Made by a program: the position numbers and the translations under genes. The notes below the pieces were generated by a model. It was not told the DNA's origin. It did no database searches and saw nothing but the letters and a program-made list of their open reading frames with translations. A stretch of 60,140 nt of DNA, filler included, from Hausera hauseri (taxonomy: Eukaryota): assembly GCA_046269625.1 (NCBI GenBank). It is 11 parts of 11 records of this genome, joined end to end, with 100 filler letters (N's around TTAATTAATTAA, not from the genome) between each part and the next. Parts side by side here need not be neighbours in the genome. Positions count along the whole stretch, not along the records: positions 55,265 to 60,140 come from JBJURY010406590.1; 10 more parts are not named here. The stretch is one strand, 5' to 3'. Position 1 is the stretch's first letter. Each line of letters begins with the position of its first letter. Positions 1 through 60,140 of this stretch are shown piece after piece.

Positions 1-246
1 CCGTGCATTTCTTGGCTTTCGCATTGTATATAATTGAACCAGTCGATTTTCTTTTAAACCCCATTTCAATCCATTTGGTATTTTACTCTCTTTGTCTATT
101 TCTACATAACTTTTATTCTTTAAATTCTCTCCGATCTGGCGATACAAACTCTTGTATAGTAGCTTTAGAACTGTCACACGCTGTTGTAGGAATTCGTCGA
201 TGTCGTATCCGGAACTGGTTGCGGAATTTTTTGCCGTTTCGGCCAT
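1..246 (-). CDS. Partial ORF of unknown function running off the window edge
   Basis: ATG at 246 opens 82 stop-free codons (MAETAKNSATSSGYDIDEFLQQRVTVLKLLYK...). No recognisable motif. Confidence 0.3.
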   Translation of the reverse strand, partial: MAETAKNSATSSGYDIDEFLQQRVTVLKLLYKSLYRQIGENLKNKSYVEIDKESKIPNGLKWGLKENRLVQLYTMRKPRNAR

Positions 247-384
247 ACTTACTCCGCTAAAATAAAAATAATGGTCAGTCCTAATACAGATCATCGTTTT
301 GAAACAAAATATTTTCTTTGTCTGATGATAGGATAAACCGATCTGTAATTGTCAGGTTATGCTATCATAAAGTTCGTCTCGGTG

Positions 385-1655
385 TCATTTATCGCCCTTC
401 CGATTTTTACTGCGCTTATTACAATTTTTGGAAACTAGAGAAATCATCGCCGTTAATATGACAAGAACGAAAATTGACAAACTTGATAGAACTATCGTCG
501 GTAAACCGCTTGGCTCAATAGAACTTTTTGTGGTAAACGTATTTTGAGTACTAATATCTTTATGCCGCATTACCTCAATTTTGTTGTCAAGAGTTCGGAC
601 TGTGAAAGTTTTAGGATTTTCACCCTTCGCGGTAATTCGGAATATGTAATTATGTTGCGGTCGTAATCACTCGCATTCGGTTTCCTGATTATTCTTTCTC
701 AGGACCACGACATGGTGGTGTGCAGGGTGGGACATTCAATTTTGATGTTTAGATTTATCGTTTCTTTAGCGTAAAATAGAATTTTATCACTTTTTGCCAA
801 AATCTTAACTGGTATACGTTCTAGTTCTTTTTCAAGCAGTTCCTTCGAAGTGGCGATCACCGTTGTGGCAGTTGTACTTGAAACTGTAAACAGTTTTCTC
901 GTAGTAGTTGGGAACTGAAGTTTCCATATTCCGATTTTTGGACGGTATCCCCTTAAATACGTGCTTCGCTCTCCGGTGTACGTATTGTACAAATCAAGTT
1001 GCAACTGATACCCTTGTCCTAGTTGTAGTACACAGCACACAGTAGGCTGCCGTCATGCGAGATAACAATACTCCGGGATAGGAATCGAGGCATTCAGTGG
1101 TATAAATCGGACAGAAATTTGTCTGTCTTCAGGCAGTTCCACCTTGGTTTTAATTCGAATACATTGGTTTTTTAAGTACTTGGAAATCCCAATAATGTTA
1201 TAGTCTAAGGGCTTTTTGAATGGGTCAGTGTTTTGGATTATTTCATCCGTCTGGGCTAAATTCGTGTCATTTTGTTGAGGATTTCTTATTGAAAATTCAG
1301 TGATTATGTAGGCTTGATCTCCGGGTTGATTATAATAGAAAATTTGAAATATGCATCCGCAGGCTTGTCCAAAATCTAATTTACAACATTTTCTCTGAGC
1401 TCCGTATGGAAAATCGCATGTTCTCACCGCAGATACAGTTACTAATATTATTTAAAATTTTACATAATTCTGAATAGGTTCGCTTGCTTCAAACCTTGCA
1501 CATGGTTTGCTCCAATCCATATCGTGTACTCTGAGTGACTGTAAGTTCTGGATATCCTTTCGTCTTGCCGCATATTGTAACTTTTCGGTTTGACTTATCG
1601 ATTTTACCTTCGGTATGTACGAAGCGATTAACGATAAGGCGAGGACTATTTGCAC
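385..1655 (-). pseudogene. Putative second type I membrane protein downstream of integrase
   Basis: ORFs 1655-1452, 1427-1053 and 1040-699 share one frame. It starts with hydrophobic VQIVLALSLIASY and has a Cys-rich middle. ORF 570-385 supplies a TM (IVLSSLSIFVLVILTAMISLV) and a basic tail after a frameshift. Confidence 0.6.
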
Positions 1656-1668
1656 ATACGTTATCGGT

Positions 1669-4600
1669 CTAGCCGCTATGGACGATGTTTTTTTTTCTGT
1701 TTGTATGCTTTGATTTTGCTCTGCTAGAACGTAGACTGTAACGTTTACTTGGTCTTATTTCCATTTTAACTACTCTTTGAATCGATATGACCTCCTTTTT
1801 GCCGTTTTTATTTATATAAACAGTGGACGGCGTAGTCTTGGTAACTTTATAAAGTCCTCTACCGGTTCTAGTAATTTTGAGAGATGTGCCTTTCTTGGCC
1901 ACTGATAGTGCATGTAAAACCAATTTCGTGGTTCTAGATTGTATGGTTTAGCCTTTGTGTTATATTGCCTCTTTAATTGTTCCTGGTATTCTTTAGATAA
2001 ATCCTTGGCTATTTCCCAACATTTTTGTAATTTCAATTGTAATACCTCGACAAAATTCTGTTTTAGGTCTTCCGTTCTTGTTGAGTAGGGAATCAACCCT
2101 AAATCTGTGGGTAGTACAGATTCTCTGCCGTAGATTATAAAAACCGGAGTGAATCCTGTTGCGGTATGTGGAATATATTAATGGCAAAATGTGTATCTTC
2201 TAAGAACTCATTCCAATCTTTCTGGTCTTTTGCGACTACTGTCGATAAGATTCGTATAACTGTCGCGTTCATTCGTTCAACCATTCTATTACATTGGGGA
2301 TGATAAGCTGTGGTAGTTAATCGTTCCATTTCGAAAATTTTGGTAATTTTATCGAACACTTCGCTCGTAAAGTTTCTCCCTCGATCTGTAAAAATTTGTT
2401 CAGGTGGCCCGTATCTGCAAATAATCTTCCGAACCACTACTTCTTCCAAGGTCTCAGCCTTTTGGTCTACTAACGCTACAAACTCGATGAAATGAGTCAA
2501 TCGGTCTACACAGGTCAAAATATATTTGTTGTTCTTGTGAGTCGTATGTAATGGTCCTACAATATCCATAAAGATTGCTTGCATTGGTCTATCGGGAACG
2601 TTAATAAGTTTAAGCTCCGCGATGTAGTTTTTCGCTTTTCTTTGTTTGGTGACGCATACTTCACACGCATTCACTTAATTTTTCACGTCGATGTATATGC
2701 TCGGCCAATAATATTTATCTGATATTTTTTCCAATGTCTATTTTCATGACATGTGTCCGGCCAGATATGAATTGTGATTGGCCATGAGCACTCCTGCTTG
2801 TAATCCTTTTGGTATGGCGACTAATTTTTGTCCTTTGCGTTCGTAGTACAACACATTTTCAACGTCTCAACGACGCAGTATTTGTGACAATATCGTCTTT
2901 TCTTTGTTCAGCAGAAATTCTCAATGTCTTATCTAGTCTGTGAGTCTATTGTCTCTATACTAAGTCTTCGAGGTGGGCTTTCCTCATTACCGTAACTGCG
3001 CTTGACTTAGGTTTAAGTCTTGACAATGCATCGGCATCGACATGTTTATTTCCAGGTTTGTACTGGAATTTGATATTATATCGTGAGATTTCCCATATCC
3101 ATCTGTTAAGTCTACAGGTTGGATTATTCGCCCTACACTTTAAGGTTGTAACTGTCTTATGATCATTAACTATTACAATCTTTTGTCCATAGACATACAC
3201 GTTGAAGTGTCGCAGTGCTTCTTTCACTTCAGTCGGGTGTTCCAACTCTTCGTCTTTTCGTTTTTGGGCCAGTTCATATTCGATACCTTCCTTACTGGCG
3301 TCCGTTTTGATTATGAATAGTAGGTTAAAGTCGGGATACATTAAAACGGGCTCACTAGATAGGATCTTTTTTATTTTATCAAAAGCTTTCTGTTCGACAT
3401 CGGTCCATTTCCATATGATCCCTTTTTTAAGTAAGCGGTACAAGGGTGCGTTTATCTCTGAATTGTCCGGCACGTTGGTAGAATAATACCCCATGCAATC
3501 CCATATCTTAATTAATAATGATTTATCTGGCTGCGATCCTCCTTTTCCAACTATATGTGCAAGGTACGACACAGCATTCTAAGCCAATTTGCACTTCTTG
3601 GGATTCAGTTTCAATCCAGCCTGCACCAGTCTCATGAGTGTACCCTCAATGTCCTTCAAATGATCCTCTTCCGTTTTTGATGCAATCATGACGTCGTCCA
3701 AGTAGGCGAATGCGTGTTCCAGTCCCATCAGCATCTTGTTCATCATGCGGGTAAAGATGACTGGTCCGGTAGTTATTCCAAATGGCATAACATTAAATTC
3801 GTATATACCGTTGTGTGTCTTAAACGCCGTCTTATACCGATCTTCCTCCTCTATCTCTACTTGCCAATATCAGGACTGTAAATTAAGGGTGGTGAACCAT
3901 TTAGCTCCAGAGAGTCTATCCAAAGCTTCCTTTACTGATGGTAACGGAAAGGAGTCCTTCATCATAAGTGTACTTAACGCTTGATAGTCGATACAAAATT
4001 GGTGCTTAGTGGTACCTTTTTCCTTAACCATGAGTATCGGTGAATACCAAGATTTGTAGCTTGGTCTAATTATGTCGACCTTTAACATCCGTTCAACTTC
4101 CTTAGTTATTTCTGGCCTTAACGATTGTTAAGGAGGGTACCATTTAGGCATTTTTGATCCTCCAAATTTATTTCGTCGTTCGATCCAGGCCTTTTCTTAA
4201 GTAGGATCGTGAGTCTTATGGTTTTGGTTCGCCCAATATCTTCTTCATCTTTCGCGATAATCGAGCTATAACGACAAAATAAGTCGTAAAATCGGCAATT
4301 TGATTTCGGTGAGAATTTAGTCTCGACGTGGGGCGGAAATTTGGCACCATTATATGGTTTCTTTTCAATGGTAATTGATGATACTCTATACGTGTGTCCC
4401 AAAGTGGTATTGGCATAGAGCTTGATTGGGGTTGGTGCATTATGTGCAATTCTGATTGGCACGCGGCCAGTTGATACTCTGGTCAAGATGTTGCTGTGTG
4501 CAATGTTCGGATTGAGTGATTCTCTCGGCCCGAAATATACCGGCTGGTCGTCATCTTGATGTATTTGGGCGTATATTAATATTTCAATCCTGGGCGGTAT

Positions 4601-5000
4601 AGTTTCATCCACGGGAATCCATACTTTTCCAAATTTTCTGTCTTTAGTGATTTTAACTCCTTTTATTGGGCCAAGTTCTATCAGTTTCCCTGCACTGAAA
4701 TCTATCGCTACGTTTGGCAGTTATCTCAATAGATCACAACCTAATACTACGTCATCCGCTAATTGCTCCATTACTGAGAATTCATGATGAAAAGATTGTC
4801 CCATTATGTGAATTTCCGGTTTCCATCGGAATTTTCTTTTAGACGATTGTCCGAAAACTCCGATACTTCCTGGGTCTGTTGCGGAAGGCGGATATAATTG
4901 TTTTCGTAGGAATTGCCGTATTGAATCATATTTTATCAGTTATATTTCGGATCCTGTGTCTATCAGCGCATAAACTTTCCAATCCTCCAATCGAATTTTT
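1669..5000 (-). pseudogene. pol: pol: aspartic protease, RT, RNase H, integrase (disrupted)
   Basis: ORF fragments 4612-4118 (PR-RT linker), 4088-3579 (RT), 3572-2955 (RT thumb/RNase H), 2674-2135 (integrase core), 2096-1669 (integrase C-terminus). The PR-RT-RH-IN order and motifs are Ty3/Gypsy-like. Confidence 0.93.
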
Positions 5001-5649
5001 GCAAAAGGCCACATGAGGGTGTTGGATCGTGGTCACTTTGTAACTGTTAATGGTAACCTTCGTATTTCCAACGGGTTGGTCGATTAACTGTCTCAGTTCT
5101 CCCATTGTGTACAATTCATTATTCGTACCATTTGTGTTTTCCATTCCTTAATTTTTAACTGGTGGCTGAACATCTTGGTTCTGGAGATTGTGTGCCTCAC
5201 TGCTTCTGTTAAATATTGATTGCGTTTCGTTTGGTCTAGGTACTCTAGGTGAATAGATTATACCGTGATCGTCGATCGTGGGATAAACGGTTTTCCTACC
5301 TTACACAACACCGCATAGTGCTTCGTTCCTTCGTAAGGATCCTTTAAACTAAACGGCTTCCGATAAACGTTTGTCTGGCACGAGCTCATAGTTTGTTTCT
5401 CGCAATCATCATATATAGGTGCCGTTGGCGGCAGTATCGGTAATGGTAGTTTCATAACAGAGTAATTTTTGTGCCTGTGTGACCTAGAGATGACGTCTCC
5501 TGCCTTAAGCTTGTTATTGTCAGAATTATTTCTTCGTGTCTTACTATCTATGTATTTTTGCCCGTAATGGAATATGCGTTTTTTACGTTTTCGATTATGG
5601 TACCCAACGTGTCGTTCCACATCTGGTTTCTATTTACTCTCTTCATAAG

Positions 5650-7578
5650 CCTTTAAGAATTTGCCGAAAGGTGTAATAATAGCCGTTAGAATTTTGCACG
5701 AAAATTCTGTCAAAGTAAATATCTCATATTTATTGATGATTGCTTAAATTATAGATTTTACCAGTTGAATTAAAAAGTATATCGCTAGAATTCCTGACGC
5801 GGCTTGTCCGAATATCAGAAATCTTCCCATATTTTGTACAATATTTCAGCCGTTACCTTTTTATAATAGCCAACACCGGGTAATGACTCCCATTTCGCTT
5901 GTTCTCGCGAATCCTCTAATATTGTGTGCATTGCTCGATTCAGTTTGTGCGTACGCTGACGAGGGAAGGCGAGAAATTGTCTGAACGCCTCTACTCCTTT
6001 TGGTCGGAAAATTCCTTTGGCGACTGTATCTTGAAATTTATCATCAGTTATTCCTTTTATTAAGTTTGTCCCTGTTAATTTGGTAGGTAATATGATAATG
6101 TCGCCGTTTGGTAAACTTACCCAGTCGGTTTCTCTTCGCCTGAACATAGGCTCGCATAAACTGGTTTTACAGTCTTTTAAGATTATCGGTTGAGTAGAAT
6201 TAGCCAATAGTACTCTGGTAATTGGTGTTACTAGACTCGGTACGTCCTGGTATATTACTGGAAGTTCTTGTATACACCTCTTTTCTGACACATTAATAGG
6301 TACGTCCTTCTTTTCACATTCGCAGGTCAATAAAACTTCTCTGGTTACCCGTTCAAAAACACCTACCTTTATTGCAATTATTGGTAATGCTAACTTTGGA
6401 TTGAAATATATTAGGGCCAGCTTAGTTCTCATGATTTCCAAATCCAACTTGCAGTCGTTCGTTATCATTTTATGATATAGTTCGGCTATTCCTGATTGTC
6501 CTTTATAGTAGAAATAGTTGTCTCTGTTTTTCAAGTAATCTTTAATCCGGATGTCCTGAGTAACTAGCTTCAACTATCTGACGTTTATTTCCGTTTCCGC
6601 GACGAAAAATACTTAATAGTTAGTAGCGTACATTATAACGTCACATCTTGTAAGTACATCTTTCTTCACAAACTTTAGTCCGTGGGTATCAGAGATCTGT
6701 ATCGTTGGCGTGGACTGTTCGGCTACATCTTCTCGTGTTTTAGAATGAGTTTTTGTGCTACTTATGTACCGTTTTCCTATCGTCTCAGTGAACTTAAGTT
6801 CTTTAATTCTGATAAAGTTGCAATCGGTCTTGGCTGGGGGTTCCAAAATCACTACAGAACTAGGGAACGGGCATGTGCCATCTTGAATGTGGCAATTATG
6901 GTTCTTGGTGTAAAGTTTAGTAACACTATGGAACATCACCGTTTGTATGCCCATTTCAGTTTCGTAAAAATCTACTACTACGATGTTTGACTCCAATCCT
7001 TTTCCCGTGTCGTATTTTGCACCATGACAATGCCCGGTGTGCATGTCTAGTCTTTCTGCCGCCACTTTATACAATCTTATTATCTTCCCTTGTTGCATTT
7101 CCAGTTTCATGCCGTTCCATTTTATTCTCCCCGTTTTTCTAGCTCGCTTACAATGCCGTCGTTCTAAATTCATTGAATTTGGCTGGGTCGTTGGCTTGAT
7201 TATTAACGAGTGTCCATGTACCCGTCCACAATTAAAAATGCTTTGAGATCGCCACAGCATACATTCTACTCTATCCAACGTGACTAGTTCGCATTGTTGA
7301 TATATGACGTAACTTTTTTCTTTTGTTTCTAATTTGTGTGGTCTCGCATCTTCGCACATTTCCAAGTCCATTAATGGATATTTTTGGCCAAGTCTAAATT
7401 TATCACAATCATATACCGTAACCACACACATTTGTCTGATCAACATCATCACCGTCAAAAAGTTGATTAGCCAGTTCGACTCATTTCCTCTAGGATTTCC
7501 GGTTACATTTCGTAGTAGATCCTTGAATTTATTGTTACCGCAGAAGATTCTATTTTGATCTTCTTCTTGTCTTTCGAA
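5650..7578 (-). pseudogene. Chuvirus/Jingchuvirales-like (class III-type) fusion glycoprotein with internal signal peptide and C-terminal TM
   Basis: ORFs 7458-6613 and 6573-5815 are in one frame with a premature stop. Motifs VYDC..YPLMDLEMC, C...SQSIFNCG..HGHS, CKRARKTG, CHGAKY, LYHKMITNDCKL, CIQELPVIY..TPITRVL. TM segment (G)RFLIFGQAASGILAIYFLIQLVKSII follows a 1-nt frameshift near 5826. Confidence 0.85.
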
Positions 7579-17086: not shown

Positions 17087-17775
17087 CCATTGAGAGTCCG
17101 TCCGATCCGGCGAGGAATTTTGGACGTCGGCTGATCACCGGGGATTAGTTCCCCCCTCCAACCCTCCGGAGTCATCTTAGGAGTGGGAGGACGTTCTGAT
17201 TCATCACGGAAAGGATCTACTCCACTTGGATTTCGGACAAAAAACAACGTATGTAAAGCCGCTTGACTTTTAATATTTTTTACTTTCACTTTAAACTTTT
17301 GTAAATTCTGAACGAACGAAACAGAATTGAGAAATAAAAATACTGTCATTAACACCGTCGGGGGTTAGATAAAGTGCGACAAACGCGAAAAAAACAAACT
17401 TTAAACAAATAAAAATTAGGTTTTCGTAAGTCAGGGACGATCGCACAAGAATAACACAGACAGTGTAAATTCGCCTAATAAACAGGGGATTGAGAGTAAA
17501 TTAGTCTGAAAAAGACAATTGAGCGTAAGTTCTACTGAACTGAGTGTAAGTTTTTCTAAATGAGGGTAAACTCGAGCAGTTGAGTGTAAGCGTGTTTATG
17601 TGAAGGTGGTGTAGACTCGTTCACGACGTGTTGAGGTAGGTTTGTTCACAGAATAGCTGAAGAGTAAGTTTTTTTAAGAAACTGAGGGTAAATTTGCTTG
17701 AATAAAGGGAATTGAGGGTGATCACGAGGAATAAAACAGATTTAAAAACAGATTAAAAAAAACAACTTAATAACC

Positions 17776-22211: not shown

Positions 22212-22311
22212 NNNNNNNNNNNNNNNNNNNNNNNNNNNNNNNNNNNNNNNNNNNNTTAATTAATTAANNNNNNNNNNNNNNNNNNNNNNNNNNNNNNNNN
22301 NNNNNNNNNNN

Positions 22312-24830: not shown

Positions 24831-25702
24831 CGATGTTTGATTCTGGATCCTTCGATGGTGATTTCCGATTCGCCTTTAACAAAACCGTCTTTTTAATGTG
24901 ACTTGCGAATAGATACTCGACGGCTAGGACAAATTTCCAAAAAATCACTATAAATGTCGTGGGTTCGAAATATTCCATGGTTTTCCCTTTCGGAATAAAT
25001 TCGTTAGTCCGCGTTCCGCTGATAATGTGGATCCCCACATGGGAAGATTGGTCATCTTTTGAATAAACCGGAAATCGGTTAGCAAATCCTTACATTCCGT
25101 ATAGTTTGAAAATGAGCAGACGTTTTCGCTTGTATATTGGGATTTCGTTTTACACCCGATTGCGTAGGATGATAACAAAGACTTATGATACTTTCGCCAA
25201 GTTTACCTATAGCGTTACATCGCTGACTATTCGTATCGAGCCTGTTGAGACTGTTTGGGTTCATTGGAATGTTTCCAATAAAACTATCGGTCAGCTTTCT
25301 TTGTTTGGGATCCGTCATTCTGCTTTTCTTGATCAGTGGATTTAAACAAATAGAATTAAATTGCCATTTGTTTATAATTCATTTCTGTCAAGAGTTGGCT
25401 AACATCACTATTGTTGCCTAATTTCGGCGTGTATAATTTTTGTTTTGTTTTGGGAACTTATAAAATTACCCACACAACTAGGTGCTTTTTAATAGTATTT
25501 ATTCAATCACTGCAGTGTTATTTAACACGTTGACGCCAGCGCGAAATTTTCTGCAATCATATATGTACCACCGGTGGTTCATGCAGACGTCAGTGTTAAG
25601 AAAATTAAGAATTTTAACTTTTATTTTGACCAACATTGTGAATTTAATATTATCCATTATTGTTTTATTTTTATTTTAGATTCAGTTGTTGACTAACGAA
25701 TA

Positions 25703-28515: not shown

Positions 28516-28615
28516 NNNNNNNNNNNNNNNNNNNNNNNNNNNNNNNNNNNNNNNNNNNNTTAATTAATTAANNNNNNNNNNNNNNNNNNNNNNNNNNNNN
28601 NNNNNNNNNNNNNNN

Positions 28616-31556: not shown

Positions 31557-31865
31557 ATCTGTCTTATTCTTGTAAGATTTATTTTCAAGTTGAGGAAGTT
31601 TAAACTTACCGTTTGGTTCGACGTTAGTTATTTTAACTCTAGTTTCCGAATTTGCTCTGTATATAACTCTACGTGTCTGACGTATAGGTGATTTATCCTT
31701 ACCGTTTATTTGGTTGTCAGTATTCGTACTGAATTATCCCTTTAAATTTAAGTCTGATAACTTATATCCCAAAATTTAAAATTTCTCACAATTACTTGGT
31801 GTAGGTGGCGCTGATCGACGGTATGTCGTTACTTGACTCTAATAGTATCTAGCTAGGCACAAACT

Positions 31866-34353: not shown

Positions 34354-34453
34354 NNNNNNNNNNNNNNNNNNNNNNNNNNNNNNNNNNNNNNNNNNNNTTA
34401 ATTAATTAANNNNNNNNNNNNNNNNNNNNNNNNNNNNNNNNNNNNNNNNNNNN

Positions 34454-37161: not shown

Positions 37162-38567
37162 GACCGCAACGTCTTCAAGGCTGGTGTCTCCATTTTTAAA
37201 TTTTTTATACCAGTAGTAAGCCACATCCCTCCTCACCATACAATGACCTTCCACTTCAGATATGGCTTTAAAGGCTTACCTTTTTCCAGAAAAAACGCAG
37301 AAACACTCGATTTGTATATTTTTCTTCAAACATCTAGAAGGTGTTTTGTTATATTAGTAAGCAATTTGTAAACTTGCAATAATTATTAATTAATTATTGG
37401 ATTTTGTAAGCAGTACGAATTTAAATGAAATTTCGAAACTTACATTGGTCAACGTTGCCAGAAGTGAGTTAATGATCATTAACCCTATCAGTAAAATATA
37501 GGATATACTGGTTTGCAAGAACATGTGAAATTGAAATAATTGACGACCATGAATGTTTTGACCAGACTAGTTCTTTCGAAACTCAAACTATCAAAAGGAA
37601 TATTCTGGATTCCAAGTATATAACAAAACTAACGATGGATATTGATTCACAAAACAAAACAAAGTTTTTCCGTTAAGGAAAATAAAGACTCAATGTCTAA
37701 TTCTGTGGACCAAACATCATAAATCGAAATTTAATTTATTTCTGATAAATGTTTACAAAATATAGATTCGAAGAAAAAATTAGTTATGATAAAAGATGAA
37801 GAAAATTAACCTTTTGAATGTGTACAAGTGGATTGTATTTATACGTTTATATTCAAAGGAATTTATTAAGCAGTGTTCAATACTGATAATATATTTAAAG
37901 TCAATTTCGATGATTCAGAGAATTGAGGAAAAGCTGATAAGAGCAATTCTGAGATTCAACTTGTCAAATTGTTATTGGCTGTTACAAATATCAGCAAAAC
38001 ATCTACAACTTCAATGTCTGTAATAACTTCACTTTGTAACTACATTGTATAATATGAATGTAAATTTTAAATATATTACACAATCGCCTTGTGATATACT
38101 TGTGACAGAATTTTTGGTATGACCTGAGTATTTTGACATGACATGAACGATAAACCGGAAATCCGACATTCTTATTAGAAAAATTAAGGAACAGCAAAAT
38201 GACACAACATTTAGAAGTCCATATTGCATAATCATAGCTTTGTTTGCAAAATTTCTTTTTATATTATTAACGAACATAAAATTTGGTGCCTACAGATCGT
38301 ATAGGGCTTGCAAAAATCTGAACAGAAGTAAGATGCCGTTCATTGTAAATATTTTAATAAACGATAAGACAAAAATGTACATAATTAAAGGCAAAATATT
38401 TTCGTCAAAAAATGAATCAATGATATTTGGATGAATTTTCATGCGTATATTTATTCGAAATATTCAATTAATTAAAATTTAAGGAAATTTTATTATTGTT
38501 GTCAATATATTCCTAGAATTATCAAATTTGTTTTTTAATACTTATTTTTATTCATACGACTTACCAA

Positions 38568-39029
38568 ATGCCCAAACCATCTCGTATCTTTTTAATTAGA
38601 ATAAAGAAAGAATTGGAATGGCTCAATGAAGACAAAGATTCGTTAGTCAGTGCAACTCCAGATGAAAAAGATATGACCAAATGGACCGCAGTTATTCAAG
38701 GTCCTCCAGGTACTCCATATGAAGGAGGAAAATTCAAACTTCTACTAACATTGCCAGACAACTATCCGTTTAAACCACCAAAAGTTGAAGTCCAAACAAA
38801 AATATTTCATCCAAATATTAAAGGAAATCGTATTTGCCTTGATGTGCTACAGGACCAATGGACTGCTGGATTGAATATTCAGAAAATTTTGCTTTCAATT
38901 CTATCATTATTGACTGATCCAAATCCATCCAGTCCGTTAAATGGGGAAGCAGCTACATTGTATCAATCAAACAAAGAAGCATACAATCGAACGGTTAAAG
39001 AGTGGATTATAAAAAATGAATCCCAGTAA
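38568..39029 (+). CDS. Ubiquitin-conjugating enzyme E2, UBC4/5 (UBE2D)-like, intronless
   Basis: RIKKEL, GPPGTPYEGGKF, YPFKPPKV, FHPNI..GNRICLDVL (catalytic Cys), PNPSSPLN. Confidence 0.95.
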   Translation: MPKPSRIFLIRIKKELEWLNEDKDSLVSATPDEKDMTKWTAVIQGPPGTPYEGGKFKLLLTLPDNYPFKPPKVEVQTKIFHPNIKGNRICLDVLQDQWTAGLNIQKILLSILSLLTDPNPSSPLNGEAATLYQSNKEAYNRTVKEWIIKNESQ

Positions 39030-40714: not shown

Positions 40715-40814
40715 NNNNNNNNNNNNNNNNNNNNNNNNNNNNNNNNNNNNNNNNNNNNTTAATTAATTAANNNNNNNNNNNNNNNNNNNNNNNNNNNNNN
40801 NNNNNNNNNNNNNN

Positions 40815-45690: not shown

Positions 45691-46499
45691 CTGAAAATAT
45701 ATAACAGGAGAAAGGAACGAGTTATCACATGTATACTAATTAATGCACGAATTTTGCTTATCATTAGTTGTCGCTTTTGTCGCAGACTCTGCCACTCCGC
45801 AATAAGGAGACATATTAGTAGGGGAAAAAAGAGCGTTCTGGAACAAGGGGGGGGGAGGTCCACCCACGCACCAATTGACCAATCACAAGCGTCTCGCATG
45901 CTGATTGGTTAATTCGACAACGGCGAGTTCAGTNNNNNNNNNNNNNNNNNNNNNNNNNNNNNNNNNNNNNNNNNNNNTTAATTAATTAANNNNNNNNNNN
46001 NNNNNNNNNNNNNNNNNNNNNNNNNNNNNNNNNAATAGTTAATCAGTTGAAGAAATTGCAAAATTTTGATGGATTATCAATTTCAGACTTTGTACGATGG
46101 TGGTAAGTACATAATAGTGATTTGGTTGCGAGAGCAGCAGGAGCATTTACTATGAATGACTTTTAATACAGACGGCGTCACGGGTGTTACTGACCGTTTT
46201 AATGAAAGCAAACCGGTTGGAATAAATTTGGTCACTGGCTTCATTGACCGTTTTTCTATTGCTACGATGACAGTAAACCGGTTAGTACATATTTGGTCCA
46301 TTGTTTACAACGAAAATAAACCGATTTGAACAAATTTTGTATAAATATGGATGTCTTTTCATTTCAGTTTGTCTATAAAATGTCTGCACAACAAAACAAC
46401 AGCATCTACAGCAGCAAAAACAACAACAATACCGACAGTTCAATTGTGTCAGATTTCAGTAAGTTCATTTCAATTTTACTTTTTGCCCTTAATATGAAT

Positions 46500-47169: not shown

Positions 47170-50100
47170 AAAATAAAGATCACAAATGTCAACGATCTAG
47201 TTGGACTGAATTGCATGTTTGCACTGATCTGTTTGTGAACACTAAAAGTGTGTTATCTCAAACGCCAGTGTCCGTACCCCAAACTCTTATTTCGTCCCAC
47301 CCACTTTCGCTTATCATCATTGCATGATAAAACGACTTTTGTGTTGGTCACCATATACAGATAATGCTCAATTGATCAGATGATCGTTTGAGATGCAACA
47401 GCCTTTGACTGTCCTTCTTCTTTATAGATACTGCGATAATCACCGTGATTTATTTCCGTCTGGGCCAAATGAACTCCTTTGGCGCGAATTTTCGGTCCAC
47501 ATTCAGTTAAAAGGCTATAACCTTTTGGCCGTAGAAATACCCATTCCCACAGTGAAGCCGACCTTCACTTCCATCCTTGAATCAGACGATTTGGTTTACG
47601 ATGGCGTTGGTGTACAACGGATGATTCTGTGGGTAATTTGACGCCCAGTAATCCGTCTGCCATCATTTGCCGCAGTAGTTGTTCGCGATTGATGTTTCCA
47701 ATTCCAAAAAAAACTGTCTGTATCATCGGCAGTTATATTGATCCTGCATCCGCCACCGCCGAACATTTGCCGGTAACGTGCCAAATCGCGATACTGCAGC
47801 TCATACATCCGCAACTTGCTTAGGTCCAATACCACTTGTCTTACATAACTTGGTCGGTCCAGTACGACTTCTTCCTTGCTTAAAAGCACGCCAACTAATC
47901 CATCAGCAGTGTGCATTGATCGCCTGAACTGTGCCTTGCTCATGTACATGACAAACCGCTTTTCGCTACTCTATAGGTGTACACTGAGCTGCTTTTTCAG
48001 ATTCTCTACTGTTTTTCCGTAGGGCGAATTGTTTTTCAGTTTGTAATAGTCTTTTTCAAACTTTGTACAAGCTGCAGCTCGTTTTTCCGAATTCCGACTG
48101 ATGTACGGCTTGAATATCGGAGCCAGTGCGAATCGGACTGCTCGATGTAGCCGTGTGACGCGTACACCCAATTGCATGTAAAATTGCAACATACGCCAAT
48201 GACCTATGTAATTTTACTTGGGTTCATGCGTCACAAGGAGCTTCTTCAATTTTGAGCCCGGCGGACTTATGCTAACTGGTGCGCCCGGCAGTTCATCCAG
48301 AAAGTTATGCAGCTCATATGATACCACGAGATAGACTTCCATAAGGTATCCGATTCAGCTGTTTTCTGTTATCTAGCCTGCTCTCGACAGATTTTCCAGT
48401 GTTGTATCCAGGTCCTGTTTGTCAACTACCCATTTGAATGAACCCATACGGCAAGGGTTGCGAAAGCGCCCAGCCGTACAGGTTATTAATGTCGATATAC
48501 AACAGTGATATGGTATCATCACTGGTTACATAATGCTTGTTGACAAATGTCATGCCGCCACAAATACAAACATCAAACATTCGGTACATTTCAGGGTCTT
48601 GCAACAGCTCGATATCCCGATCCAGTGATATCAGAGCTGATGCCCAACTCATTTCGTATTTTGAGTAAAAGTTGATTGGCTCCAGCCTATCTTTTGCCAA
48701 CGCGTTAGCTCGAAATGTCTAAAACACATCGGCTAAAATGTACACGTCCAATTTCAGATCCTGAAGCATGTACTCCAACAGGTTTCTGCAGCCAAGCTCT
48801 GCCAAAAACAATTGTGCTTTGTGATGTTGGTCTTCTGTGATACCGGGCCATTGCGGTGGTAATTTGTCTATCGTCTGGAGCCGCTCGTATGATATCGCAA
48901 AGTCATACGGGAATATGCCTTTTCTACGTGCAATGCGTGGGGAACTGAGTCAATGTTAGCGGCACATCTGGCAAGGCATTTACCAGCTTTGCCAGAGATT
49001 CATTGAGAAATTGCAATAAGTCGATGAAGCGTACATGGAATCGGTTAATACGAGCAGACAGTGACAGGTATTTCTCCATCGTATGCGGAATTATGGATAG
49101 TGCCCACTGTGGAAATCCGTTTATGGCCCATTTTAAAATATGGTGACAATCATAACTCCGAAAGTTATGAAAAATTACCGGCAGGAATGGCCGCACACGC
49201 CTTGCCAAATTGCACTAATTGCATGCTGCTCCGAGATATCGACCAGTAAAATGGTCATGATCCGATACGAGCCGTTCCTGTGCATCAAACGGGAATATTT
49301 TATGGCACAGGTAACATTCGTCTGTGACTGAAAACGTCAGGCGTTCATCTTTATCTGTCCGCATCAGAAGTTTATTACTATTTCTACTGTACCAGCTTGC
49401 GATTCCCGTTTCTATTATTGTTTCTATCAGCTGCAGGAAATCACGTACACAGTTCCAGCCATGAAAACATAATATCGTGGATGACCTGCGACTTTTATTG
49501 GGACAACCAACATACCGACGGCGATTGGAACATGTTTTTGGTCATATATGTTATGCCGTGGTAAGAGCTTCGATATCGTCATATGCTACACATGCCGGGC
49601 TGTCTGTTTTTGACCAATCAGTGAATCTCAGTTCCTTTTTGTCAGGCATGACAAACATTGTTGTTCCCGATGACTTTTGTCTGCATAGTGTCACATATTT
49701 CTCCCATGTTCTTTCCGACCTGAATCCATGCAGACATACAGGACACCATTTACAATGTATCCATTTTGGAGGAAATGGTCATGCTCAATGTTCAGTAATC
49801 TGTCAAAATTTGTCACTGCATCGTAATGGTACTTTTCTTTTCGTTCCAGTAGCAACAAATTTACTGAGTGGAGGCCATTTTGGTTCCGATTGCGATAGAT
49901 TATATTCACATGACGATTTTTATAAATTTCTTCATCCGCTGGTATTTCTACGATTGTGTTGCGCCGAAACACGTTGAATGCCAGTGTAGGATTACTCCGT
50001 TCAAAAGCCGAAATAGTTTTGAGTTTCATTGGCATCCAGCTTTCATCGAAATCCAATTCGGAAAATATTTCCGATAATGTTTTGGACGAGATGCATTATG

Positions 50101-50322
50101 TTTGTCCACTTTGTCATATTTCAATACCGACAGAATACTGTAAAGAAAACAGTATTCATCGTTAGTATTTTTTACATTCACTACCTCCAGAGACTGCTAT
50201 AGAGCTACAAGTATCGGTATGAATAATATCCCAGACAAATATAATATGTTAATCGACTTTGTTATGATAAAGCAGAGGGTGAAAATTTGTATAATTCGCC
50301 ATCCACTACCATTTTCCGTGTA
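47170..50322 (-). mobile_element. Polinton/Maverick-type pPolB, degraded (copy B)
   Basis: FHNFRSYDCH, YIDINNLYGWAL, YYKLKNNSPYGKTVEN, ADDTDSF, HDHFTGRYLGAACN. Colinear with copy A. Confidence 0.9.
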
Positions 50323-52222
50323 NNNNNNNNNNNNNNNNNNNNNNNNNNNNNNNNNNNNNNNNNNNNTTAATTAATTAANNNNNNNNNNNNNNNNNNNNNN
50401 NNNNNNNNNNNNNNNNNNNNNNCAAATGGACCAAAGGGCGCCGGCCGCTGTGGGCACCACAAGCAATTTCTTGCGCTATCAGTTTTCCGGTTAATTTTAC
50501 GCAACTTTTATACATCTCCGTACATATTTATGGTAGGCTTATCAGAGCATTGGTAGGCAGTTAGCACTTGATATGGATTGTGTCCTCAATTATTATTGCA
50601 TTGCATGGAAGAAGTAATATCATAATGATGAACGGCTCGGACGTAAGTTCATAAGAATCGTGTCGGGTTGAGATGGAAGTTGGTCATACAAAACTCGTTG
50701 TAAATTGTGTTGTTGCGTCTGTTTGAAGGTTACCATATGCTAATTTGGAGTGGATGTAAAATTTCTGGAGACATTACCGTACAGTTTCTGGATAATAACA
50801 ACTATCGGGACAAAGAATTGTCATGTTAATGAAATTGTTGTCGATAATGAATATTTTAATGTTTATTTTGTGATGGCAAATGGACAAAAAAATTGAAATG
50901 AACAAATTGAGTTATAGATCCGGTTTTTAAAAATTCAGTATATTGTTAGATACAATTGGACAAAATTCACTGAAGAAGTCAACGAGTGGTTTCAGTCTGG
51001 ATGGATAAAGATATAGTGAAATGTTTGAAGGATTATCAAATTATTGGCTATCGCGAATTAAATCAGTATATATCATGTGATACCACGGGTAGCGAAATAT
51101 GCAGTGGAAAGATCAGAAGTTGGAGACGAAGAGGACAGAATTTAATAATTCTAGATTTTAGAATGAAGTATTTGAAAATTCATGTAGCGGAGTGCATGTG
51201 GAAGTATCAGGGGATTGATTCTGATTAACGCCTTTGGGTTTCGAGCTAAATATGGCTCCCATAATAATGACGTAAATTGCCAAAATGGTATTGTTAAAGG
51301 AACACGCAAGTATGTTCAGGAACGGACTCATATAGACGATATTTTCAAATTCTGTCAGTGTGAAGCAAGTCCAGGATGTGTTAGAAAGTTTGGTCTGATA
51401 ATAAAGGACACCATTCTTTTTACTAATGGCGGCGTTTTGATGTTACATGTGATGGATACTTAGGGTAAGTTGTGTTGAACTCGAGGAAACAACCTTCCCT
51501 CAATTACCGAGCGTTTGATAAAGAAGTTGATATTTTTAGTCTACGTTAAATTACTTGATCACACTCCTATTTACGGGATGGTTGAGGCCTGCTTGCAGCT
51601 TAGTAAAACGCAGTCAAAATGATAAGAATTGGATGGACCATGCAGATGCAGAAACAATTTAAATAATTACTGATATTTTAGCACGAGTTCGAAGAGAAGA
51701 CTCATCACGAAGAAAGTGTGCAATACCAGAGGTCGCCAAAGGGAAGATATGAAGCGATGCAGGCAGCTTGGTAATAGACATACATGAGGAAATTGAATGC
51801 TAGATAGTCGAAGATGCATGTCGGTTGAAAAAAGAAAATGATTCATCGCACAAGTGTTGCTCAACTAGAGGGTTTGTTAAAAAGTGTGAATTTGTCAATT
51901 AAATGGGACCTAACAGACATTAAGTTAATCACAGACTCCATAACTGTGTTTAATTGGGTATCATCGAAGATTTCAAGAGATCAGTGAGTGAGAATCACAG
52001 ATTAAATGAATGATGATAGTTGATTTCATCAGATCCGACATGAACAATGCTGACAAATTAACTAGAGTTCTACAGAAATGTCTATATTCAGGAACATCTG
52101 TTGCAAAAGATGAAATACAAGAAGTTCGTTTAAAAATCCAGTTGGGTATAAACAGAACATTGTATATTGTTTGAAAATGTTACCTTTAGGGGTGCTGGCC
52201 TTGATGAAACACTCCACTCTGT

Positions 52223-52963
52223 TCATAACGCCGTGGCAACAGAACAATAAAATAAAACGGAAGCGAAAAAACGAAGGAGTAAAACTGGATAATATTCGCA
52301 ACGTTTATTGTTACTATAATCACCGTCTGCTAAAACGTACGAGTTCTCGGTAGGGGATCGAGACAATTTGAGGCTGCGAAGTCGTTGAGGAGGGATTTGC
52401 ATTTCGTTCGAGCTGGAGCTCGACGCCCTTGTCCGCCACGTGTCGGTGGTTCGGCGACCCGGAATCAACTGGCTCTCTGGTGGAACCAGCGATTCGAAAA
52501 GGCAGTCTGTAGTCGCCATCAGTCTTATGAAGATTGATAGGAAAACCGACGAATCAAAAAGTCGTCGATTCTCCCCGTCGTTGTAGAACTGGTCGAGGGT
52601 AGCAATCGGAAGAGAGTAAGGATCGTCATCCCTCAAACTGGTAAAATGCCGTACGAAACGGCTGTGAAGTAGAAACTCCCGTGCCGTTTGATAATCCCAG
52701 TCGGATCGACACGGAGCTTGTCGTCCTGACGGACGTCTGTGGGATCGCCTCCAGACTTTATCCTTTACTCGACGCTCAGGTAAGTGAGCGGAGTCCTGCA
52801 GGTTTTCCTCCGCGTCGGTTTGATGCTCTGTCGTATGGGGTCGTGGGATGTGATATCCCGCTGCCATTGTGACCCCGCTCCTTGTGATGGGGTCACCGGG
52901 TCTTATAGTGTTGGTGGCCGTCGTCTGCGTTGTTTGTGGTATTAATTGTACAAGCGAAATCAA
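52223..52963 (-). CDS. ORFan, paralog 1
   Basis: 246 aa GC-rich ORF; its core SRFVRH..DPY.LP...FY.DG..RRLFDSS.FL..FIRLMA.TD.LFESLVP.ESQLIP is shared with 54167-54619. Confidence 0.55.
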   Translation of the reverse strand: MISLVQLIPQTTQTTATNTIRPGDPITRSGVTMAAGYHIPRPHTTEHQTDAEENLQDSAHLPERRVKDKVWRRSHRRPSGRQAPCRSDWDYQTAREFLLHSRFVRHFTSLRDDDPYSLPIATLDQFYNDGENRRLFDSSVFLSIFIRLMATTDCLFESLVPPESQLIPGRRTTDTWRTRASSSSSNEMQIPPQRLRSLKLSRSPTENSYVLADGDYSNNKRCEYYPVLLLRFFASVLFYCSVATAL

Positions 52964-54166
52964 GACATTGCTTTGTTCGTTTCACGATAAAAAGTAAACC
53001 AAATGCACATAACATAGCTCCGAATAAACTTGCCGCAAGTAGAATTTTTCCTTTGATTTTAAATTCGGTCACTAAAAACATTGAATCAAGTTAAATTTGA
53101 TAGCCAAAAAAATAATCCAAAATTTCCGTTATTGTGCAAATTGGCGCGTAATAAATGGATTGCATGCATAAAATCTGAGAAATAATTAAAATAGGATCCC
53201 ATACAAAACTTCTAAATCCACTCATGTAAACAGACTGAATATTAAAATGAATGCAAATTCTAATGGAAACTACTAAATTCAAATGGTAAACGTAATTTAT
53301 TTATTTAAAATAACTTTTAGAAAGCCAGTAATAAACGCTAATAAAACATTCTCAATTTTGCTTAACTTTCCGATATAGTTCATCTGTATTTGTGACATTC
53401 GTTCAATTCTAAACAAAGACAAATGTAACGACGTACAAGCAAAATCTTTCAATGTACAATAGAATGTTTTCTGTTTTTTTACACAATCTACACAGAAACA
53501 AAATAAAATTAAACACAAAAAACAAGACAATATTCGTACAAAACTAGACGTGACGTAACATTTTTTATTTTGAGTTTTCGTGGAATCGGATGCTGAAATA
53601 AATTGGTAATTGATTTGTTTTTGTTCATCTTTAAGAAGTCTTTGGCTACTCGTTGTCTGATTCGGATGTTTATTGGTTGATTTCAATGTCTTTACCGTTT
53701 CAACATTGGGATTCATAGTTCTGATTAGAATTTGCTAGGCTGAATCCGGGATGATTATTGGAAAGGGTTTGGATGTAATGGGACCTGATTTGAATGGGTA
53801 TGTATTTTGCATCGTTCATCATCATTAGATGCGTGTAATGGTTTTTGTTTGACTTCTCTGGAGACATAGACAGTTCCGAGTTGATCTTGTTGAAATCGTC
53901 TTGTGCATCGATATTATCCGCATTCAGAGTTTCACATTTGTAATTAATAGGGATATCTTTGTAGAAATTGTTCAGCTCCTTTTCTTGATGTTGTTTTGAA
54001 GCTGTTCCTCTGCTGAATTTCTTTGACATACGTGTACAACAAAACCAGTAATACAATGAGAAAGACCACTTTAGTGCATTTACATTTTATAAAACGGTCG
54101 AGCAAAACCAACGGGTACAACGTCAAACAGTAAACAAAAAACAAACAAAGGTTGAAAAATTTATTT

Positions 54167-55076: not shown

Positions 55077-55264
55077 ATGAGTTTAAATCCATAGCTTTAT
55101 CTTGTAATATTTTTGTTGGCTACAAGTGCTGATAGCCCAATCACTTGCATTCCCCAACTTGCTTNNNNNNNNNNNNNNNNNNNNNNNNNNNNNNNNNNNN
55201 NNNNNNNNTTAATTAATTAANNNNNNNNNNNNNNNNNNNNNNNNNNNNNNNNNNNNNNNNNNNN

Positions 55265-58200
55265 CATTTCCATTTAATTCCCTTCTTAAGTAACCGATAT
55301 AAAGGTGCATTTATTTTTGAATTAGCTGACACATAAGTTACATAATATCCTCATAATCCTAGACAGTGCCTTAATTCTTTCAGGTTTTGTGGTTCCATGC
55401 AATCTGATATCTTGTTCAATAATGATTTATCTGGTTTCGATTTTCCTTCCCCAACTATATGGCCAAGGTAGGATACTGAGTTCTGAGCCCATTTTCATTT
55501 CTTTGGATTCAGCTTCAATCCGGCTTGTTCCAGTCTCATTAATGTGTATTCCATATCCTTTAAGTGTTCCTCTTCGGTCCTTAATGTTATCATTACGTCG
55601 TCTAAGTACGCAAAAGCATGGTCCAGTCCCATTAGCATTTTATTCATCATTCTCGTAAATATGGCTGGTCCAGTAGTAATACCGAACGGCATGACGTTAA
55701 ATTTATAAACACCATCGTGTGTTTTGGATGCTATCTTATAACGGTCTTCGTCCTCAATTTTCACCTGCCAATATCCGGATTGTAAGTCCAGAGTGGTAAA
55801 CCATTTTGCTCCTCAGAGTCGGTTTACAGCCTCCTTTACTGACGGTAGTGGTAAGGAATCTTTCATTATAAGATTATTTAAGGCTCTGTAATCGATACAA
55901 AATCGATGTTTTGTGGTACCTTTTTTCTTAACCATCAGGATTGGTGAATACCAAGATCTATAGCTGGGCCTAATTATGTCGGCCTTAAGCATTCGTTCGA
56001 CTTCCGTCGTTATTTCGGGCCTTAGCGAATGTGGCGGAGGGTACCATTTTGGCATTTTCTGATCATCTAAGTCTATTTCTTCATTCGAACCCGGCCTTTT
56101 TTTGAGCGGAATAATTAGCCTTAACGCTTTTGCTCTCCCAATATCTTCTTCGTCCTTGGCAATAATCGATTTGTAACGGCATAATAATTCGTAAAATCGA
56201 CAGTAAAATTCGGGGAAGAACTTAGTTTCGACGTGAGGTGGGAATTCGGCATACTTATAAGGCCTTTCTTCGATAGTTATCGACGACACTATACGTATCT
56301 CTTAGAGTCGTATAAGCGCGAAGCTTGACGGGAGTCTGCGCATTTTTTGCTATTCTGATCGGTACACGACCGGAGTGTACCCTTGTCAGTATGTTATTAA
56401 GTATTATATTCGGATTTAATGTCTCCTTGGTTCGAAATATACCGGTTGATCGTCATCTTGCTGAATTTGTGCGTAAATTATTAATTCTCTTCTTGGTGGA
56501 ATACTTTCATCTACTGGTATCCGTACTTATCCAAATTTTCTATCCTTAGCGTTTTTCACCTTTATTTGGTCTGATTTCTATTAACTTTCCTGTTTGTAGA
56601 TCAATTGCTATATTTGGTAGTCTCTTCAATAGATCGCATCCTAAGACGACGTCGTCGGTTCATTGTTCCATAACTGCAAATTTATGACGAAATTTTTGTT
56701 CAACTATTTGGACTTCTTGGTTCCATTTAAACGTCGGTTTTGACATTTGACCAAAAGCTCCTGTACTTCCTAGGTCTTTTGTAGGTGGTGGATATAATTG
56801 TCCTTTCGGCGTTTGAGGTATTGAATCATTCTTAATGTAAGACATTTCGAATCCTGCATCGATTAAGGCATAAACGTCCCGATCTTCGCTAATGATTTTC
56901 GTGAAGGGTCTTCCTTCTATTATTGTTCCGAAACAGTTTGTTGCTACTTTTGGACGTTTAGTCGCCGATATTTTATGTCCATTGATTCGGGCAATTGTTT
57001 GTCTTAATTCTTCGTTTGGCTTTAACTCGTTGTTTTCAATGCTTAATTTTTCCGTTTCATGTGTACTAATTAATGGTTTTCGATTGTCAGTGTGTAGTTC
57101 GGTATTCTGGAAGGTTTTTAACCTTGGATTGTCCCAAACCGTTGATCTAGTTTTTATATTCCGAGGTTCTCTCGGAGAATACAACATTTTGGGACCATTT
57201 GTGGATTGTCGGTGACACATTTTCCGTAGGACTTTATAGCGTTTCGTTCCTTTATAAGGATCTTGTACATAACTGTAATTTTATAGATTTCCGTCTGATA
57301 TGAACTCATTGACCGTTTATCCAAGTCTTCGTAGACCGGAGCGGTAGGAGGTAGCATAGGCAATGGTGCTTTGATGAGAGTACGTCTTGTGTCTGTTTAT
57401 TCTTGAAAGTACTTCGCCTCCCTTAGGCTCGTCATCATCTGAATTATTTCTTCGTGTATTAGGTTTTGTAAAGTTCTGCTTTCGCAAGAATATAGGCCTT
57501 CCTTTTCGCTTACGATTATAGTAACCGACATGGCGTTTTACATCCGATTTCTATCTATTCTATTCGTATGCCTTTAAGGATTTTCCAAAGGGCGTTATGA
57601 TTGCCGTCAGTATTTTACATGAAAATCCAGTCAACTTAAATATCTCTTATCCATTTATTACTTCTTGGATAACTGCCTTAATCATTTGTATCAAGAAATA
57701 TATCGTCAAAAATCCATATGCGGATTGAACTTAGATCAAAAATCTTCCCCAAATTTTGTATAGTATTTCCGTGGTTACTCGCTGATAATGGTTTACGCCA
57801 AGTAATGATTCCTATTTAGCCTGATATCGGGTATCGTCTACTACAGAAGCCATGGTCCGGTTTAATTCATGTGTCTGCTGTCTAAGTGTGAACATGGGTT
57901 CTCCTAAGCTTGCCTTACAATTCTTAAGAATGGTTGGTTGTGTCGCGTTATCCAACAACACTCTCATTAATGGTCTAGCTAATCTTGGGGTATTCTGATA
58001 AATAACAGGGAGTTCCTGAATGCAGCGTTTTTCCTCCACGTTGATAGATACATCTCTTTTCGCATTCGTAAGTTAACAGTACTTCGCCTGTAACCCGACC
58101 GAAAATTCCTTCTCTCACGGGAATTATTGGAGAAGCCAGTTCTGGGTTGGCATATATCAGAGCCAATTTTGTCCTCATGATTTCGGTATCTAATTTACAG

Positions 58201-60140
58201 TCGTTAGTTATTATTTTGTGGTACAATTCGGCTATTCCGACTTGCCCTTTGTAGTAGAAGTAATCGTCGCTGTTTTTTACATAATCCTTGATTCGGACAT
58301 CCTGCGTTTCTAATTTGTAAGTTTTTGCATTTATTTTCGTTTCTGCGACGAAAAATGCTTTGTAGTTAGTGACGAATATCACTACATCACAACGTGAGAT
58401 CATCTCCTTTTTAATAAATTTCAACTTATACTGATTTGAGATTAATATAGTGGGTGTAGGATGTTCTGATACGTCCTCACGTGTCCTTGAGTTGGCATCC
58501 GATTTATCCACATGTCTTTTTCCTGTAGTCTCATTAAACTTCAGTTCTTTAATTTTAATAAAATTACAACTTATTCCAGAAGGCGGTTCCCATATTATAA
58601 CAGAACTTCTAAAAGCACAGGTTCCGTCTTGTAAATGACACTTCTAATTTTCAGTTTATAACTTGGTGACACTATGGAACATTACTTTCTGTGATCGCAT
58701 TTCCGATTCGTAGAAATCCACGACTACCACATTCGATTGTAATCCCTTTCCAGTATCATATTCTGCTCCGTAACAATGTCCGCTATGCATGTCTAACCTT
58801 CCGGCCACTATCTTGTATGCCCTAATTATCTTTCCGGGTTGCATTTCTAAATCCATATTTTCCCACTGTACCCTTCCAGTCTCCTTAGCTTGTTTGCAAT
58901 GCTGGCGTTCTAAATTCATTGGGATAAGCGGAGTTGTTGGCTTGATTATAGAGGAATGTCCGTGTACTAATCCACAGTGAAAAATGCTACGTGATCGTCT
59001 CAGCATTCATTCCATCTCATCCAACGATATCAGTTCTTGTTGTTGGTACAAGAAATAATTTTTCTCTCTTGTTTCTAACTTGTGTCGTCTGGCATCTTTG
59101 CACACTTCTAAGTCCATCAGGGAATATCTCTGTCCTAATTTAAATTTTTCGCAGTCGTAGACGGTAGCAGCGCTTATATGCTTTACTAACATCATCAAGG
59201 TGAGTAGGCTGATTAACCAATTTGATTCATTTTTCCGGTAGCCAACATCCTCCGTTGTTAGATTACGTAACATATCATCGAGTTTATTACTGGTCTGTCT
59301 ACCTTCTTCCTTGTCGAACAGTCTTGACCAATTTATTTTGCAGGGCAATCTTCTCGCTGCTTTTTGTACTAAACTTATAACTTTATTAATCTCATTCTCT
59401 CGATTAGAGTTGATCTTAATAGCTAAGTATAGTAATACTTTTCTCAATTCCTCGTTGGTGTTCTCTATTCTTTCTCTATCTTTTCGATTACTGATTCATC
59501 GGTTAAGTTACTTTTCGATAGTTTAAAACGTGAACTTCTCATCATACTAGCTGCATAGAAAATTATCTTTTCTCTGTCATCTAGTGTATCACCTCGAAGG
59601 CTCGAATAATTTACAATTCGTATCAAATTCTTCATTAACTCACTTAATTCTTCATTATCTGTGCTGAAAGTCGGAATTAACATTTTTCTTAGTTTTCTAA
59701 TCAATTCTCCATTATAGTCTACTTCTCGCGTTTTCTTATGCCTTCCAACTAGACGTTTTGGCCTTGGCCTTTGGTGGTTATTTCACTCAATGGTACTAAA
59801 TCTATATCGTATTGTTCCTTATCTTTGTCTGTTCGTAAATATTCGAAATACATTGCAGCGTCTCGGACTCCCATAATTTGTCCTACGCATTGTTCCGTCT
59901 TGGCTTTGCGTTTGGCTTCTTCTTTTGTCTGTTCGTTAGCTATTATTGCCACTATTCGATTCGTTTCGTCGGGGATAATCCCGACGTCTATTAATTGTTC
60001 TAAATCATCGAGTATTTTACCTCTAAAGTAAAATCTATAATTTAGCTCGTTTGTTCCGCCATTGTTTAATAATTAGTCTCTTAGATCTTTTACATAGGAA
60101 TGTGTAGTTAACTCCATTCTTTTTCGTCCATCCATTCGGA
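55265..60140 (-). mobile_element. Chuvirus-glycoprotein Ty3/Gypsy element, copy 2
   Basis: Same order as copy 1: upstream coding region, signal peptide plus VYDC (in ORF 59447-59007), glycoprotein fragments to about 57580, PPTAP, protease LIDAG, RT (FCIDYRALN, MPFG, YLDD). Confidence 0.92.
59940..60138 (-). pseudogene. Ubiquitin-like domain within the retroelement's upstream coding region
   Basis: Manual translation RMDGRKRMELTTHSYVKDLRD*LLNNGGTNELNYRFYFRGKILDDLEQLIDVGIIPDETNRIVAII, in frame with ORF 59952-59749. Confidence 0.65.

Follow-up and report, generated by a model that had tools for sequence, protein, structure and literature searches.

The window, that is, the whole stretch of DNA analysed (60,140 nucleotides from Hausera hauseri), consists of unrelated contigs joined by spacers, each made of 44 N, a 12-base linker with stops in all frames and another 44 N. 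Because the contigs are unrelated and merely joined by the spacers, the neighbourhood of two features across a spacer means nothing. The contig that carries the ubiquitin-like (UBL) segment extends from the spacer at about 55265 to the end of the window and encodes the components of a retroelement on its minus strand. A second copy of the element, called copy 1 below, is found on another of the joined contigs. The features are as follows; Burro, to which some of them are compared, is a giant gypsy element of planarians.

59941..60138, minus: putative ubiquitin-like segment, truncated where the window stops, with an in-frame stop at 60073-60075 (PF00240 E=0.0032; alignment to ubiquitin 23-70; third-position bias among relatives)
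59749..59940, minus: charged linker in which the UBL frame continues, ending at a stop that is absent from most relatives
59468..59782, minus: four-helix region in a second frame, where Burro has a BCL2-like domain (model pLDDT 60, four helices)
59169..59495, minus: remaining part of the leader, read in a third frame (98 codons free of stops)
57690..59168, minus: class III fusion glycoprotein (Env) of the gB/chuvirus type, interrupted by stops and shifts of frame (PF24664 Monjiviricetes_fusion, E=2.5e-8 and 1.3e-12)
57337..57348, minus: PTAP motif resembling a late domain, located between the membrane segment of Env and the protease
56660..56914, minus: retropepsin protease (PR), decayed (PF00077 RVP, E=0.0035)
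56255..56659, minus: PR-RT spacer, at the place of the dUTPase-like domain of Burro (67% identical to copy 1 over 51 aa)
55495..55812, minus: reverse transcriptase (RT) core, a fragment (PF00078, E=6.4e-25)
1..7578, minus: second copy (copy 1), on another joined contig, with Env, PTAP, PR, RT, RNase H and integrase, 69-74% identical
7579-7678, 12109-12208, 16285-16384, 22212-22311, 28516-28615: spacers
34354-34453, 40715-40814, 45934-46033, 50323-50422, 55165-55264: spacers

The order of the components is UBL segment, helical region, Env, PTAP motif, PR and RT. Being broken, the genomic copy at 55265-60140 does not give rise to an intact protein. Copy 1 starts downstream of the UBL segment and, therefore, provides no test of it.

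The other contigs carry a variety of genes. Two Gag-like ORFs (22312-24812 and 28656-31733, minus), 69% identical to each other, contain a CCHC knuckle and are extended by a long region that is charged and coiled-coil-like. They could represent the 5' half of the same family as the UBL element; tblastn gave no link between the Gag-bearing segments and the leader that connects the UBL segment to Env. A GC-richer, nearly unbroken gag-pro-pol at 17746-22211 (plus) has an N-terminal MG, PPPY motifs and a CCHC knuckle. We take it to resemble a vertebrate-type retrovirus more than the surrounding gypsy elements, and it could be a contamination or a different class of element. Two decayed copies, 73% identical (8493-11560 and 47242-50315, minus), presumably represent a region of a protein-primed DNA polymerase B, and three pieces of them had no match in Pfam. 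An intronless ORF for a ubiquitin-conjugating enzyme (38517-39029, plus; PF00179 E=3e-47) is located on a contig other than that of the UBL element; the first 122 bases of this contig (34454-34575) recur in inverted orientation at 38249-38370. Host-like sequences comprise an intronless sugar/organic-ion transporter (25697-27223, plus; PF00083), exons of SYS1 (52854-53300, minus; PF09801) and a DUF7047 fragment (51540-51737, plus).

Leader, envelope and polymerase regions

The leader between the UBL segment and Env is composed of pieces in different frames, each of which is open in the frame that it occupies, the alternative frames being rich in stops. The frame of the linker has 0 stops in the 53 codons over 59782-59940, and the linker (59749..59940) matches no known family and nothing in Pfam. 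The helical region is of a size that fits the BCL2-like domain of Burro, but it is split over two frames. Bcl-2 was absent from the best 50 structure matches of the helical-region pieces, the best of which was generic with a Z of 6.6, and this result excludes nothing; in the Atlas, the matches of the region are under 0.9, and the two ORFs neighbouring the UBL frame have matches only under 0.9, or none. The leader ends in a hydrophobic, signal- or anchor-like stretch, which starts at 59219, just before the YDC motif of Env, and has a counterpart in copy 1 at 7473. We infer that this stretch acts as a signal or an anchor.

The C-terminal membrane segment of Env is located near 57712, as judged by hydropathy. 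The PTAP motif follows within a proline-rich stretch, which the two copies share with a DNA identity of about 69%, and the motif itself is found in copy 1 at 5417-5428 (minus). The late motif is thus placed behind Env rather than in Gag, and the literature searched yielded no description of a PTAP in this position. The motif at 57337..57348 would be an ESCRT recruitment motif and is a more direct candidate for this role than the UBL segment.

Env is located directly upstream of PR (PF24664 at 59006-57978, RVP at 56914-56672), and the pieces scanned showed no match to Gag between the two. The PR-RT spacer gave no dUTPase match in Pfam, NCBIfam or PDB sequence searches; NCBIfam matched 0 of 4 queries. 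The order of the Pol domains, PR-RT-RNase H-integrase, is assembled from PR and RT of this copy and from RT, RNase H and integrase of copy 1. Behind the integrase, copy 1 contains a cysteine-rich ORF with a hydrophobic start (700-1451, minus). It is possibly a second surface protein and has no match in Pfam.

The ubiquitin-like segment

The residues in which an earlier, sequence-only reading of this DNA had recognized a ubiquitin pattern are those of the minus-frame translation from 60138. This translation contains one stop, at 60073-60075, and its IVAII stretch ends at 59941. The same reading had described the domain as devoid of a C-terminal GG, and this is correct: the sole GG of the 129-residue frame (residues 27-28) lies inside the fold and none follows the domain. 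The 59941..60138 segment, therefore, lacks the Gly-Gly after the last strand that characterizes a conjugatable (type I) ubiquitin-like modifier. The domain had also been placed upstream of the glycoprotein. It is indeed upstream, but not adjacent, being separated from the predicted mature start of Env by about 770 bases (about 257 codons). The window end cuts the domain, so its first strand is out of sight. Near 60114, six contigs that account for about half the depth of coverage are of a different length from the window, and the first eight or so of the residues quoted (DGRKRM) may therefore be outside the frame of the family.

Ubiquitin (PF00240) is the best Pfam family for the 66-residue read, in which the stop was replaced with X (E=0.0032, 17.6 bits). 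The match extends over profile positions 13-62 of 72 and is centred on positions 38-62; the part after the stop alone gives E=0.047. The score, obtained on a domain cut by the window end and read with one X, is nonetheless under the curated cut-off of 25.4 bits, so that the profile supports ubiquitin as the best family but not strict membership. PF11976, the family reported for Burro, is not among the Pfam matches listed at E<=1 for this read. The matches to the glucocorticoid receptor, PTase_Orf2 and XRCC4 were dropped as weaker and devoid of motif support. As a control, 100 random 66-residue reads with one stop were drawn from the window and scanned against Pfam. None of the 100 matched ubiquitin and seven matched some family at E<=0.01. 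Six of these seven fall in real coding frames and the seventh (DUF992, E=0.0059) looks like a chance match. The PF00240 match is weak, yet, as a sequence match, it is unlike typical noise.

A sequence search of the PDB put polyubiquitins on top, with scores that are summed over the repeats and to which each repeat contributes only 2.6 bits. In the PDB alignment to ubiquitin 23-70, which is free of gaps, 12 residues of 48 (25%) were counted as identical. The residues at ubiquitin core positions 23, 26, 30, 43, 45, 50, 56, 59 and 61 are all hydrophobic in the segment and in register, and R42, G47, K48, D52 and D58 are identical. The segment thus shares with ubiquitin and with integral UBLs the spacing of the hydrophobic core and the R-x-x-F-x-G-K-x-L-x-D stretch. 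It is unlike ubiquitin in the missing terminal GG, in the low identity over the 48 residues, in belonging to a retroelement polyprotein and in having a Tyr at the Ile44 position, which argues against plain mimicry of ubiquitin.

A single-sequence model of the segment is of poor quality, with a pLDDT of 50.6, and no beta-grasp is seen in it. When this model was used in Foldseek, ubiquitin chains occupied ranks 1-3, but with E of 1.2-3.0 and TM of 0.25. The parallel to ubiquitin drawn by the sequence-only reading holds for the core spacing and for the best profile match, while the fold receives no support from the model. Searches of protein and contig collections found no relatives. None came up among 1.84 billion representatives, and of the pattern matches, 23 viral and 195 from metagenomes, none was confirmed. 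Among proteins of up to 2,000 residues, there were 0 homologues in 235 candidates for the UBL frame, 0 in 2646 for the N-terminal part of Env and 0 in 603 for its C-terminal part. These negatives are weak, because polyproteins of 4,000-5,000 residues exceed the 2,000-residue limit of the search. As regards the proposed capture of the domain from a host, the searches of the protein collections yielded no donor. Taken as a sequence, the segment is probably an integral ubiquitin-like domain, without a terminal GG.

Conservation among relatives

Relatives of the element are the contigs of one public DNA run of unknown kind (share 0.45), which may be the source of the window itself; no RNA run is among the listed runs that carry the region. 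The contigs were recruited at 80% likeness and their summed depth is not taken as copy number. There are 3885 contigs on 59000-60140 and 858 on 59900-60140. Since the contigs are many and most of them are less than 95% identical to the window, they represent a repeated family with diverged members. The expectation that other members of the family carry the UBL segment is borne out by the 858 contigs that cover it.

Two stop-codon positions differ from the window in 1501 of 1521 and 1417 of 1521 of the summed depth (50 and 46 contigs, respectively). As the stop codon is missing from nearly all relatives, it is private to this copy or to a few. The substitution statistics were obtained with 38 of the 48 variant rows, 40 of which were listed, two within the stop codon being left out. 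In this subset, third codon positions account for 25 of 34 variable sites (p=1.9e-6), and silent changes for 28 of 38 against an expected fraction of 0.28 (p=7e-9). The same variants bring 6 and 2 stops into the remaining two minus frames. The third-position bias and the absence of the stop strongly indicate that the UBL frame was under purifying selection. The antisense frame, which shares the third positions, has 26 of 38 changes silent as well. Because it scores nearly equal, selection alone is insufficient to define the strand, which was assigned from the ubiquitin match and from the direction in which Env and Pol are encoded.

The interval 59082-60114 is covered by a series of overlapping contigs from diverged relatives. 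At both frame switches the contigs of some relatives differ from the window in length and are compatible with one frame, the length evidence at the first switch being one or two contigs only. The continuity of the frame into the glycoprotein, therefore, agrees with the lengths of the relatives, but no single contig spans the stretch from the UBL segment to Env. To judge from these sequences, the UBL segment is probably in frame with the glycoprotein in the relatives. Purifying selection across a high-copy family implies that the segment is working cargo and not a passenger.

Comparison with Burro and possible role of the domain

According to the Burro section of PMC6431247, the polyproteins of Burro and GYPSM1 have a Ubi2/SUMO-like domain (PF11976) flanked by MATH and BCL-2. 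Env is placed after BCL2 in the same frame and precedes PR, and a dUTPase-like domain separates PR from RT; the UBL domain of Burro sits among apoptosis and ubiquitination cargo (PMC6431247). The element described here has in common with Burro a ubiquitin/SUMO-like domain upstream of Env, an Env of the mononegavirus-fusion-like kind directly before PR, an extra spacer between PR and RT, and copies decayed by stops and frameshifts (PMC6431247). The best family of its UBL segment is PF00240, whereas that of Burro is PF11976, and the searches gave no match to the BCL2-like and dUTPase-like domains that Burro possesses (PMC6431247). The Gag, MATH, BIR and ankyrin domains, the LTRs and the overall size reported for Burro concern parts outside the window, and the PTAP motif behind Env is without mention in the Burro section (PMC6431247). 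Eight features were listed for a Burro-type element. Three of them were found, namely the order of the Pol domains, the Env directly upstream of PR and a putative UBL upstream of Env, the last recognized by a weak PF00240 match and conserved in relatives; none of the eight was contradicted.

GAG-ENV-POL elements with gB-type Env occur in nematodes, bryozoans and flatworms (PMC13524379). Smed_errantivirus_1-6, which are errantiviruses of the HSV/gB type, share with the present element a gB-type Env located before Pol (PMC13524379). In a comparison by eye with the six Schmidtea C1a rows of supplement file 3 of that paper, the cysteine pattern and the closing TNY motif of Env match, and the long insertion before the threonine-proline strand is also present, most clearly in rows 4-6 (PMC13524379). 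The leader of Smed_errantivirus is left unannotated there, the word 'ubiquitin' being absent from the text as well as from 7 supplement files (PMC13524379). The Anakin elements with chuvirus glycoproteins have a glycoprotein of the same class, PF24664 (PMC7642597, PMC12440569). They belong to BEL/Pao, whereas the element described here fits the gypsy-type layout with Env before PR.

The sequence-only reading did not know the domain as a standard one of Ty3/Gypsy elements. The novelty that this implies is not supported, because a UBL ahead of an in-frame Env is already published for Burro/GYPSM1 (PMC6431247). A keyword search of the literature for a ubiquitin-like domain in retrotransposon polyproteins had no match, although more on the domain may be found in Grohme 2018 and Sacco 2022. 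The layout shared with Burro suggests that the element works like a Burro-type element.

We consider it likely that the segment is a conserved part of a much-repeated gypsy-type retroelement, an integral UBL in a Burro-type polyprotein that docks host ubiquitin-system proteins, the host partner being the least certain step. Intact copies would encode one continuous polyprotein with the predicted order Gag-...-UBL-helical-Env-PR-RT-RNaseH-IN. The UBL would reside in a cytosolic accessory block, and the hydrophobic stretch at 59219 may anchor the upstream part on the cytosol side. Signal peptidase would cut just before the YDC motif of Env. Env would then cross the membrane, placing the PTAP tail and Pol back in the cytosol, where the protease would free the enzymes. 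Having no GG, the UBL would be neither conjugated nor clipped by deubiquitinases and would form a fixed docking or interaction module. Integral UBLs of host adaptors act as such fixed interaction modules. The UBL of the element would probably tune the turnover of the accessory block or host cell-death/ubiquitin pathways, as proposed for the Burro cargo, and ESCRT would be recruited mainly by the PTAP motif behind Env. Partners from the host ubiquitin system are favoured because of the kind of cargo that accompanies the UBL in Burro.

Other explanations deserve consideration. A host ubiquitin-family gene fragment or pseudogene might adjoin one insertion by chance, and the end of the window at this place, with the upstream context out of view, would permit this. 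Such an origin is largely refuted and can practically be dismissed, since the segment is covered by 858 contigs, most of them below 95% identity, and contigs that have diverged connect it with the leader and, beyond that, with Env. A real coding part of the polyprotein that is not a beta-grasp, and whose likeness to ubiquitin is a chance match to a motif of 25 residues, would account for a score under the Pfam cut-off with its signal at profile positions 38-62, for a poor model with Foldseek E>1, which gives no support to the fold, and for the absence of relatives among 1.84 billion representatives. It has, nevertheless, only a slim chance of being right, because nine core positions are correctly spaced and ungapped over 48 residues, the controls gave 0/100 and a UBL is published at the same place in related elements (PMC6431247).

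If the segment is a UBL, its partner may be sought elsewhere than in the favoured reading. The domain might act only within the element, as a folding spacer or a scaffold that keeps the polyprotein in order or binds Gag, and have no partner in the host. The strong conservation of the core residues suits such a structural role equally well, and the UBLs of coronavirus nsp3, which bind a viral partner, provide a parallel. We regard this purely internal role as unlikely, as the neighbouring cargo of Burro is host-directed (PMC6431247). The sequence-only reading suggested that the domain perhaps assists ESCRT-dependent budding or proteasome interaction. For budding, the polyprotein would carry its own mimic of ubiquitin, to which ubiquitin-binding components of ESCRT are recruited and which drives the release of particles together with PTAP. 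This proposal is in line with the promotion of Tsg101/ALIX-dependent budding by ubiquitin fused to foamy virus Gag (PMC2958808), with the retention of PTAP in both copies and with the predicted cytosolic location of the domain. The changed Ile44 position, in a domain with only 12/48 residues identical to ubiquitin, and the presence of a dedicated, direct late motif in PTAP make it improbable, and the UBL of Burro sits among apoptosis and ubiquitination cargo (PMC6431247). Quite improbable, too, is a split late-domain system in one polyprotein, in which the UBL mimic and the PTAP of the Env tail would recruit ESCRT without host ubiquitin ligases; if true, this would be the natural counterpart of a synergy between ubiquitin and PSAP that has been engineered in the Gag of foamy virus.

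The favoured reading, thus, remains that of an integral UBL that docks host ubiquitin-system proteins from within a Burro-type polyprotein. As the layout is already published, the presence of the domain in itself adds little. The additions are the purifying selection on the UBL segment across a high-copy family and the conserved PTAP motif behind Env. A host partner of the UBL would reveal how Burro-type elements handle the ubiquitin system.
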